The notes beneath the pieces were generated by a model. That model had not been told where the DNA came from and ran no database searches. It worked only from the letters and a program-made list of their open reading frames with translations. The translations under genes were made by a program, and so were the position numbers. From the sequence record MW630116.1: a stretch of 64,000 nt of DNA. One strand, 5' to 3'. Below are positions 25,039 through 25,724 of this stretch, piece by piece. This DNA is from Escherichia phage vB_EcoM-ZQ3. Positions within the stretch are counted from its first letter, which is position 1. Each line of letters starts with the position of its first letter.

Positions 25039-25269
25039 ATGTCTACTGAAACTATCGAAAAACTGCAGTCTGAAATCGTTACTCTGAAATCTCGCATTCT
25101 TGATACTCAAGACCAAGCAGCTGCTATCCAGCAAGAATCTCAACAACTCGGTAGTGCTCTTGCTAAAATCGCTAATCTGGTTGGTATCACTGGCGAATCA
25201 GTTAAGATTGATGACCTGGTAGAAGCAGTACGTGAACTTGTTAAAGCTGAAACCACAGAAGAAGAATAA
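25039..25269 (+). CDS. 57A: Tail fibre assembly chaperone gp57A
   Basis: 76 aa coiled-coil protein; T4 57A-like; synteny. Confidence 0.75.
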
Positions 25270-25724
25270 TGAAATTTGAGGACTTTTCACAAGGCCTCTA
25301 CGTCGCAGCTAAATTTTCGGAATTAACACTTGATGCGCTGGAAGACCTCCAGCGCAAATTAAGAATTCCTAATCCAGTACCACGTGAAAAGCTTCATTCA
25401 ACAATTTGTTATTCACGTGTAAACATACCATATACTACATCTAGTGGTAGTTATTCTGTTGCCGAATCAGGACACTTTGAGGTATGGAAAACTGACGACG
25501 GCGCTGTACTGGTTTTAGTTCTTGATTCTGAATATCTTAGATGTCGTCATCAGTATGCACGAGCTTTAGGTGCTACTCATGATTTCGACGACTACACTCC
25601 ACATATAACGTTATCATATAACGTTGGCCAACTATCATTCAGTGGTGATGTAGCTATTCCGGTTATTCTCGACCGTGAATACAAAGAACCCTTAAAACTA
25701 GATTGGGCCGAAGATCTAAAATAA
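25269..25724 (+). CDS. 57B: 57B / Acb1-like 2H phosphodiesterase (anti-CBASS cyclic-oligonucleotide nuclease family)
   Basis: 151 aa; two H-x-T motifs (HSTI, HITL) typical of the 2H fold; position of T4 57B. Confidence 0.7.

Follow-up and report, generated by a model that had tools for sequence, protein, structure and literature searches.

The acb1 (57B) gene of Escherichia phage vB_EcoM-ZQ3 and its junction with the internal-protein locus

The 64,000-nucleotide stretch of Escherichia phage vB_EcoM-ZQ3 (sequence record MW630116.1) that was analyzed here, referred to below as the window, contains an open reading frame (ORF) of 151 amino acids that runs intact from ATG to TAA at exactly 25269–25724 on the plus strand. 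It is preceded by the tail-fiber assembly chaperone gene 57A and followed by the internal-protein gene ipI, by an additional gene for an 87-amino-acid protein and, interspersed with these, by three copies of a 47-nucleotide element (Table 1). A first-pass annotation, made from the sequence alone, had taken the frame for a homolog of T4 gene 57B with the two H-x-T motifs of the Acb1 family, i.e., of 2H phosphodiesterases directed against cyclic-oligonucleotide-based antiphage signaling systems (CBASS), and had suggested that together with two downstream genes for capsid-targeted proteins it might constitute a compact counter-defense island at 25.2–26.4 kb. Judged by sequence comparison, the frame is almost certainly the acb1 (57B) gene of a Mosigvirus, that is, of a T4-like coliphage: It is an ordinary, intact ortholog of a characterized enzyme in a well-sampled phage genus and as such already known. 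As a whole, the region is most aptly seen as a junction at which a conserved block with acb1 as its last gene meets a known hypervariable hotspot of internal-protein genes.

The 57B reading frame and its match to characterized Acb1 enzymes

Both H-x-T motifs are found in the product of the frame: HSTI occupies residues 43–46 (H43 at nucleotides 25395–25397, T45 at 25401–25403) and HITL occupies residues 112–115 (H112 at 25602–25604, T114 at 25608–25610). The six frames of the whole window contain 80 Met-started ORFs of 100 or more amino acids, and of these acb1 alone has two such motifs, so that the pair is not a routine chance feature; by itself, it would prove little. The similarity to Acb1 extends far beyond these short stretches, however. 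The Pfam family PF23474 (Acb1) is matched over its entire profile (positions 1–144 of 144) with E = 1.3e-58 and 197.3 bits at a cut-off of 27, residues 9–148 align with Acb1 of Erwinia phage FBB1 (PDB 7T26/7T27) at 63% identity and E = 1.1e-58, and the alignment with T4 gp57B (NP_049750.1) is gapless with 129 of 151 identical residues (85%, E = 2e-102). A search of NCBIfam returned no model matching Acb1, IPI or the additional 87-amino-acid protein. That T4 57B is the founding Acb1, as the first-pass annotation had stated, is confirmed by the primary paper, in which Hobbs et al. identified it by activity-guided fractionation as the activity of infected cells that degrades 3′3′-cyclic GMP–AMP (3′3′-cGAMP) (PMC9117128).

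The alignment to the characterized enzymes, which had been proposed as a check, bears out the assignment at the level of individual residues. Nine catalytic and ligand-contact residues are published for T4 Acb1, namely Y12, H44, T46, W74, F107, H113, T115, E141, and W147 (PMC9117128), and this numbering fits the T4 57B sequence exactly. All nine are identical in the window protein, in which the N-terminus is shortened by one residue and each of them stands at position n − 1. In T4, H44, T46, H113, and T115 constitute the HxT/HxT catalytic tetrad, Y12, W74, F107, and W147 are the stacking aromatics, E141 contacts the adenine N6, and residues 145–152 form a lid (PMC9117128). The tetrad is thus present and aligned in the window protein as H43, T45, H112, and T114, the aromatics Y11, W73, F106, and W146 as well as E140 equal the T4 residues, and the C-terminal lid reads LDWAEDLK as compared with LDWADDLK in T4, one conservative exchange of D for E. 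The two proteins are separated by 22 substitutions, all of them outside the named functional residues. The genomic position between 57A and ipI is likewise shared with T4, whereas the overlap of the two frames differs: 57A and 57B overlap by 4 nucleotides (ATGA) in T4 and by 1 nucleotide (TAATG) in the window.

FBB1 Acb1, for which an apo structure (PDB 7T26) and a structure with 3′3′-cGAMP (7T27) are available, resembles the window protein in length class and motifs and defines the 2H fold and the mechanism that we assume for it; it differs in host genus and in having Phe and Tyr in place of W73 and F106, which are shared by T4 and the window. Since 140 residues align with the crystal structure 7T26 at 63% identity, we infer that the window protein adopts the same compact 2H fold. 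Even in a distant Acb1 structure, 9Q2G (E = 0.007), both H-x-T motifs fall in the same alignment columns; 9Q2Y, closely related to 9Q2G in sequence, has alanine at the position of the first histidine, as one would expect of a deliberate catalytic mutant.

The protein is common among sequenced phages. A protein at least 99% identical to it occurs in 137 phage records, 100%-identical proteins are found among deposited Mosigvirus genomes, and homologs extend to many host genera. The names given to these proteins vary: The record of 308Ecol101PP lists a "cyclic phosphodiesterase" and that of phage Mizar an "anti-CBASS Acb1-like protein".

Table 1. Features of the window discussed in the text, with their positions and the evidence for each.
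Feature	Position	Strand	Evidence and remarks
Gene 1 (deoxynucleoside monophosphate (dNMP) kinase), first gene of the conserved 1-57A-57B block	24300–25034	+	Pfam PF21448, E = 1.2e-96; T4 synteny
Candidate late promoter for 57A-acb1, TATAAATA, inside gene 1	24677–24684	+	match to T4 late-promoter consensus; inference only
Gene 57A (tail-fiber assembly chaperone)	25039–25269	+	Pfam PF17594 (GP57), E = 5.9e-23
acb1 (gene 57B homolog), predicted anti-CBASS 2H cyclic-oligonucleotide phosphodiesterase, 151 amino acids	25269–25724	+	matches to Pfam PF23474, PDB 7T26, T4 gp57B
HxT catalytic motif 1 (codons H43-S44-T45; T4 H44/T46)	25395–25403	+	sequence and T4 numbering; catalytic role from PMC9117128
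HxT catalytic motif 2 (codons H112-I113-T114; T4 H113/T115)	25602–25610	+	sequence and T4 numbering; catalytic role from PMC9117128
PeSL cassette 1, upstream of ipI: GTTTACA-N17-TACTAT overlapping a 10-bp hairpin	25735–25781	+	repeat family D1; −13.2 kcal/mol, z = −3.2
ipI (internal protein I), 95 amino acids	25801–26088	+	matches to Pfam PF11634, PDB 2JUB, T4 IPI
PeSL cassette 2: GTTTACA-N17-TATAGT and a 12-bp hairpin	26090–26136	+	−17.7 kcal/mol, z = −5.2
Additional internal-protein-like gene, 87 amino acids	26158–26421	+	capsid-targeting leader; PHROG 13302 match
PeSL cassette 3, upstream of the trna.4 homolog	26422–26468	+	−17.5 kcal/mol; 96% identical to cassette 2
Acb2 (Vs.4) homolog, cyclic-nucleotide sponge, 88 amino acids	41099–41365	+	PDB 7UQ2, E = 9.8e-31; Pfam PF24729 (Acb2_Tad1_hairpin), E = 4.4e-18

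Predicted action of Acb1 and competing assignments

By orthology to the T4 and FBB1 enzymes, the window protein would act as follows. Folded as a compact 2H phosphoesterase, it would bind cyclic di- and trinucleotides with 3′–5′ linkages and one or more adenosines, such as 3′3′-cGAMP, cUA, cAAA, and cAAG. The ligand would be held between the stacking aromatics Y11, W73, F106, and W146 while E140 reads the adenine N6, and the C-terminal lid LDWAEDLK would shut over it. The H43/T45/H112/T114 tetrad could then perform a metal-independent acid–base cleavage 3′ of adenosine that proceeds via a 2′,3′-cyclic phosphate intermediate, thereby removing the second messenger before CBASS effectors are activated, so that abortive infection would not be triggered. 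Activity, reaction mechanism, and the phenotype of Δacb1 were demonstrated for T4 and FBB1 Acb1: The structures of the FBB1 enzyme were solved, T4 Δacb1 was tested against CBASS operons, and cleavage of 3′3′-cGAMP, cUA, cAAA, and cAAG as well as rescue from CBASS were established with these two orthologs (PMC9117128).

The same activity should expose the phage to Panoptes-type guards, which sense the loss of a decoy cyclic nucleotide. Bas35–37, Tevenvirinae phages of the BASEL set with an intact acb1, are restricted by type II Panoptes, a sensor of cA3 loss, while Bas43 with a nonsense mutation in acb1 escapes it and escapers of Bas35 carry acb1 mutations (PMC13577387). As acb1 is intact in the window, vB_EcoM-ZQ3 is expected to be Panoptes-sensitive. 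It also encodes an Acb2 homolog, which is hidden within a longer, TTG-started ORF (40931–41365) of a mechanically generated ORF list; both known anti-CBASS genes of T4 are consequently present in this phage, 15 kb apart. With both the Acb1 nuclease and the Acb2 sponge, it should withstand many CBASS systems but fall to Panoptes-type guards. The value of the acb1 assignment lies in annotation and host-range prediction, and little in discovery: Acb1 has been known from T4 since 2022, and crystal structures as well as a Pfam family exist.

Several observations weigh against taking the frame for a functional acb1. The function of the window protein is assigned through its orthology to T4 and FBB1 Acb1, a single-sequence AlphaFold2 model reached a predicted local distance difference test (pLDDT) score of 37 and is unusable, and we found no promoter cassette of the gene's own and no promoter dedicated to it, which leaves the timing of its expression to data from T4. 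Moreover, PHROG 755, which matches the product with E = 2.4e-65, is described as "RNA ligase", the name that RefSeq also gives to T4 57B and many orthologs. These names, together with a partial match to the superfamily model Pfam 2_5_RNA_ligase2 (PF13563; E = 0.013) and the presence of tRNA genes 2 kb downstream, speak for a LigT-like protein with RNA ends as its substrate, either a 2′,5′-RNA ligase or a cyclic phosphodiesterase, which might serve in tRNA repair, for instance. The PF13563 match attains 15.9 bits, however, which is below the gathering score of 27 and compares with 197 bits for Acb1; the 85%-identical T4 protein is the fractionated cyclic-oligonucleotide-degrading activity, for which a Δacb1 lysate was tested (PMC9117128); none of the contact residues that are specific to the binding of cyclic nucleotides is lost; and the label is older than the characterization of 2022. 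The sub-threshold Pfam score, the activity of the T4 protein, and the retained ligand contacts led us to reject this identity, to which we assign a next to negligible probability. The LigT/2′,5′-RNA ligase superfamily does share with Acb1 the two H-x-T/S motifs and metal-independent catalysis, but the sequence similarity is marginal and the substrate of Acb1 is a 3′–5′ cyclic oligonucleotide instead of 2-5A or an RNA end. The name "RNA ligase" is a legacy of this distant 2H/LigT similarity, and it persists, misleadingly, in many database records. The 2H superfamily also includes viral 2′,5′-phosphodiesterases such as coronavirus ns2 and the C-terminal domain of rotavirus VP3 (VP3-CTD), which follow the same logic as Acb1 in that a second messenger of the host, itself an oligonucleotide, is destroyed.

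Also to be weighed is a diverged Acb1 whose 22 substitutions alter the substrate range or inactivate the enzyme, for example to evade Panoptes-type guards. The 15% difference from T4 Acb1 would allow for this, and loss of acb1 function is documented in relatives by the Bas43 nonsense allele and the point mutations of the Bas35 escapers (PMC13577387). Yet the frame is intact, the lid is conserved like the nine functional residues, and the substitutions, most of which are conservative, lie at other sites. FBB1 Acb1, at 63% identity to the window protein a more distant relative of the T4 enzyme, was crystallized with hydrolyzed 3′3′-cGAMP in its active site (PMC9117128). Furthermore, the retention of the same or a nearly identical protein in the 137 records argues for purifying selection. 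A diverged or inactive enzyme is therefore very improbable, and an intact Acb1 with the activity of its T4 ortholog remains our preferred reading.

Internal-protein genes and promoter cassettes downstream of acb1

The two genes for capsid-targeted proteins that had been placed behind acb1 are indeed present, and the end of the region at 26.4 kb was set correctly. In the case of ipI, residues 20–95 of the product match Pfam PF11634 (IPI_T4) with 168 bits and E = 3.2e-50; the protein, which starts MKTYKEFIS, is 87% identical to T4 IPI, and its mature IPI* part (76 amino acids) has 72 of 76 residues in common with the nuclear magnetic resonance structure of T4 IPI* (PDB 2JUB, E = 8e-42). The leader comprises residues 1–19 (nucleotides 25801–25857), reads MKTYKEFISPVANVSTLTE, and ends in the LxE site LTE, where T4 has ITE. 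T4 IPI* is an injected inhibitor of the type IV restriction enzyme GmrSD of E. coli CT596; the GmrSD variant that is inhibited differs between Ip1, Ip2, and Ip3 of T4, and their locus has already been described as a hotspot for anti-defense proteins that are injected (PMC12373910). According to the citation in the same paper, the polymorphic internal-protein locus was first described by Repoila et al. in 1994 (PMC12373910).

For the second gene, the true start is the ATG at 26158 (MKTYKEFIAESQSSTLSE...), as the upstream ATG at 26098, with which a mechanically generated ORF list lets it begin, lies inside a promoter cassette. Its 87-amino-acid product has the features by which internal proteins of T-even phages are recognized, namely a leader of the type MKTY(K/Q)EF and an (L/I)xE site: The leader reads MKTYKEFIAE-SQSSTLSE, with putative (I/L)xE prohead-protease sites after E10 and E18. 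A DNA pattern for such capsid-targeting leaders occurs three times in the window as compared with zero expected occurrences. PHROG 13302, a family of unknown function, matches the protein with E = 2e-37, searches of Pfam, NCBIfam, and PDB gave no meaningful match, homologs form only two clusters in a protein database of 5.8 billion sequences, and an AlphaFold2 model from a three-sequence alignment is unusable at a pLDDT of 46.

Elsewhere in the window, two more leader-bearing genes (39097–39399 and 38252–38533, both on the plus strand) flank denV (38580–39005). One of them, a 100-amino-acid ORF that begins MKTYQEFITEARVSAGKLEAA..., is probably ipII by length and position and has a sub-threshold Pfam match; the other encodes a 93-amino-acid protein for which no Pfam match was found.

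The region behind acb1 is structured by the three 47-nucleotide elements, each of which combines an early promoter with a hairpin of 10–12 bp (z-scores from −3.2 to −5.2) and which correspond to the promoter-early stem-loop (PeSL) cassettes of T4-type phages. The pattern GTTTACA-N17-TA(C/T)(T/A)(A/G)T is found seven times in the window, against an expectation of 0.06. Measured by the promoter consensus published for T4 and PST, TTTACW-N17-TAYWAT (PMC4122927), cassette 1 is an exact fit, and cassettes 2 and 3 (TATAGT) deviate from TAYWAT at one position. The same elements lie between 57B and ipI and between ipI and trna.4 in T4 and in Mizar, where the stems differ in sequence and stay complementary. 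PeSL cassettes have been linked to modular shuffling that includes internal-protein genes (PMC4122927; PMC2839356). The window resembles the T-even internal-protein hotspot in having ipI and PeSL-fitting intergenic elements, and it differs from the T4 hotspot by the additional leader-bearing gene: No gene occupies the slot between ipI and trna.4 in T4, an unrelated leader-bearing gene of 102 amino acids does so in Mizar, and the 87-amino-acid gene fills it here. A further copy of the PeSL pattern, at 33948–33977, has the core GATAGGxCTATGTTATAGT in common with both cassettes that flank this gene.

With these genes at hand, we considered whether 25.2–26.4 kb is a single counter-defense island in which acb1, ipI, and the additional gene were acquired, are inherited, and are regulated together. 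The three genes are contiguous on one strand, orthologs of two of them are proven anti-defense factors (Acb1 against CBASS, IPI against GmrSD), and the third carries the leader of an injected protein; moreover, all three T4 internal proteins tested so far inhibit GmrSD-type enzymes, and their locus has been named a hotspot (PMC12373910). The distribution of the genes is nested, however: 1469 phage records contain a homolog of acb1, 291 contain ipI, and 35 contain the additional gene, and this shows that they are not co-inherited. On its 5′ side, acb1 is probably coupled to the morphogenesis chaperone gene 57A with no cassette boundary in between, whereas ipI and the additional gene are each bounded by PeSL elements, so that the architecture changes right after acb1. 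The content of the last slot varies between relatives, as described above, and the other anti-CBASS gene, acb2, lies far from the region. The three genes are alike in G+C content (0.39–0.40, as compared with 0.37 for the window), which hence gives no sign of foreign origin. A jointly acquired and regulated island is accordingly unlikely: What stands of the suggestion is the proximity of two genes with anti-defense orthologs, and what does not is the notion of one inherited or mobile unit. The term holds only loosely and adds nothing to the published literature on the internal-protein hotspot and PeSL cassettes.

The junction is of interest chiefly for the history of the additional gene. The body of its product (residues ~19–85) is 63% identical to a 73-amino-acid protein of the Dhakavirus phages IME341 and IME08, which starts MKTLNINSFFYNAN... 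and has no capsid-targeting leader. The corresponding ORF (L004, 1495–1716) is located elsewhere in these genomes, between the topoisomerase gene 52 and motA, and it is also flanked by promoter/hairpin elements, which end in CCTATCAAA. Since the body occurs leaderless and at another locus in Dhakavirus, the comparison suggests an origin by fusion: In this Mosigvirus lineage, the MKTYKEFIAE leader would have been joined to an early ORFan of cytoplasmic location, and cassette recombination would have brought the fused gene into the internal-protein slot. If true, a cytoplasmic early protein has become one that is pre-packaged and co-injected. That the 87-amino-acid product is a recently assembled, injected anti-defense protein is a tentative proposal, which we regard as possible though rather doubtful; by analogy with Ip1–3, our best guess for its target would be a variant of GmrSD-like type IV restriction. 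The leaderless Dhakavirus counterpart is the sole mildly new point of the analysis, acb1 itself not being novel, and the slot, which illustrates cassette shuffling cleanly, could lead to a novel inhibitor of the injected type.

Gene order and expression of the 1-57A-57B block

The 2.4 kb around acb1 share 97–99% identity with numerous phages of Escherichia and Shigella that belong to the genus Mosigvirus (Straboviridae, Tevenvirinae), among them PNJ-9 (99.0%) and 308Ecol101PP (98.8%). The gene order is that of T4, i.e., 53, 4, 2, 3, 1, 57A, 57B, and ipI, followed by homologs of trna.4, trna.3, and trna.2 and by tRNA genes. The TAA stop codon of 57A and the ATG of acb1 share one base (ATAATGA), and this overlap suggests that the two genes are translationally coupled. 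Taken together with the missing promoter cassette, it makes acb1 look like the distal gene of a 1-57A-57B block.

Promoter searches add little to this picture. The late-promoter consensus TATAAATA has a match inside gene 1 that would be suitably placed for 57A-acb1; the window contains 11 such matches as compared with 8.5 expected by chance, and as they are not enriched, the match at 24677 alone proves nothing. MotA-type middle promoters (TGCTT-N12–14-TANNNT) were not found between 801 and 29796, and a generic scan for sigma-70 promoters gave 13 hits, which is no excess over the 9.8 ± 3.3 hits in shuffled sequence. In T4, expression of 57B is predominantly middle/late according to a transcriptome compilation (bioRxiv 10.64898/2026.03.30.715471), and by extrapolation from T4, middle/late expression is probable for acb1 of this phage as well.

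The late-promoter consensus is also absent directly upstream of ipI and the additional internal-protein gene (25724–26160), with the match inside gene 1 being the nearest. Because packaged proteins are made late, late expression of these two genes may require read-through across acb1 and the PeSL hairpins; the hairpins have no T-run.

An Rfam search of 24–30 kb detected three tRNAs and nothing else. Between tRNA-Asn (28001–28072) and tRNA-Arg (28798–28873) lies an ORF of 223 amino acids (28141–28812, plus strand), which thus occupies the position of T4 segB inside the tRNA cluster and overlaps the start of tRNA-Arg with its 3′ end. It is absent from 308Ecol101PP, where tRNA-Met adjoins tRNA-Arg and there is no tRNA-Asn, and present in phage Mizar. 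With weak matches to NUMOD3 and DUF559/RAP, it looks like a homing endonuclease.

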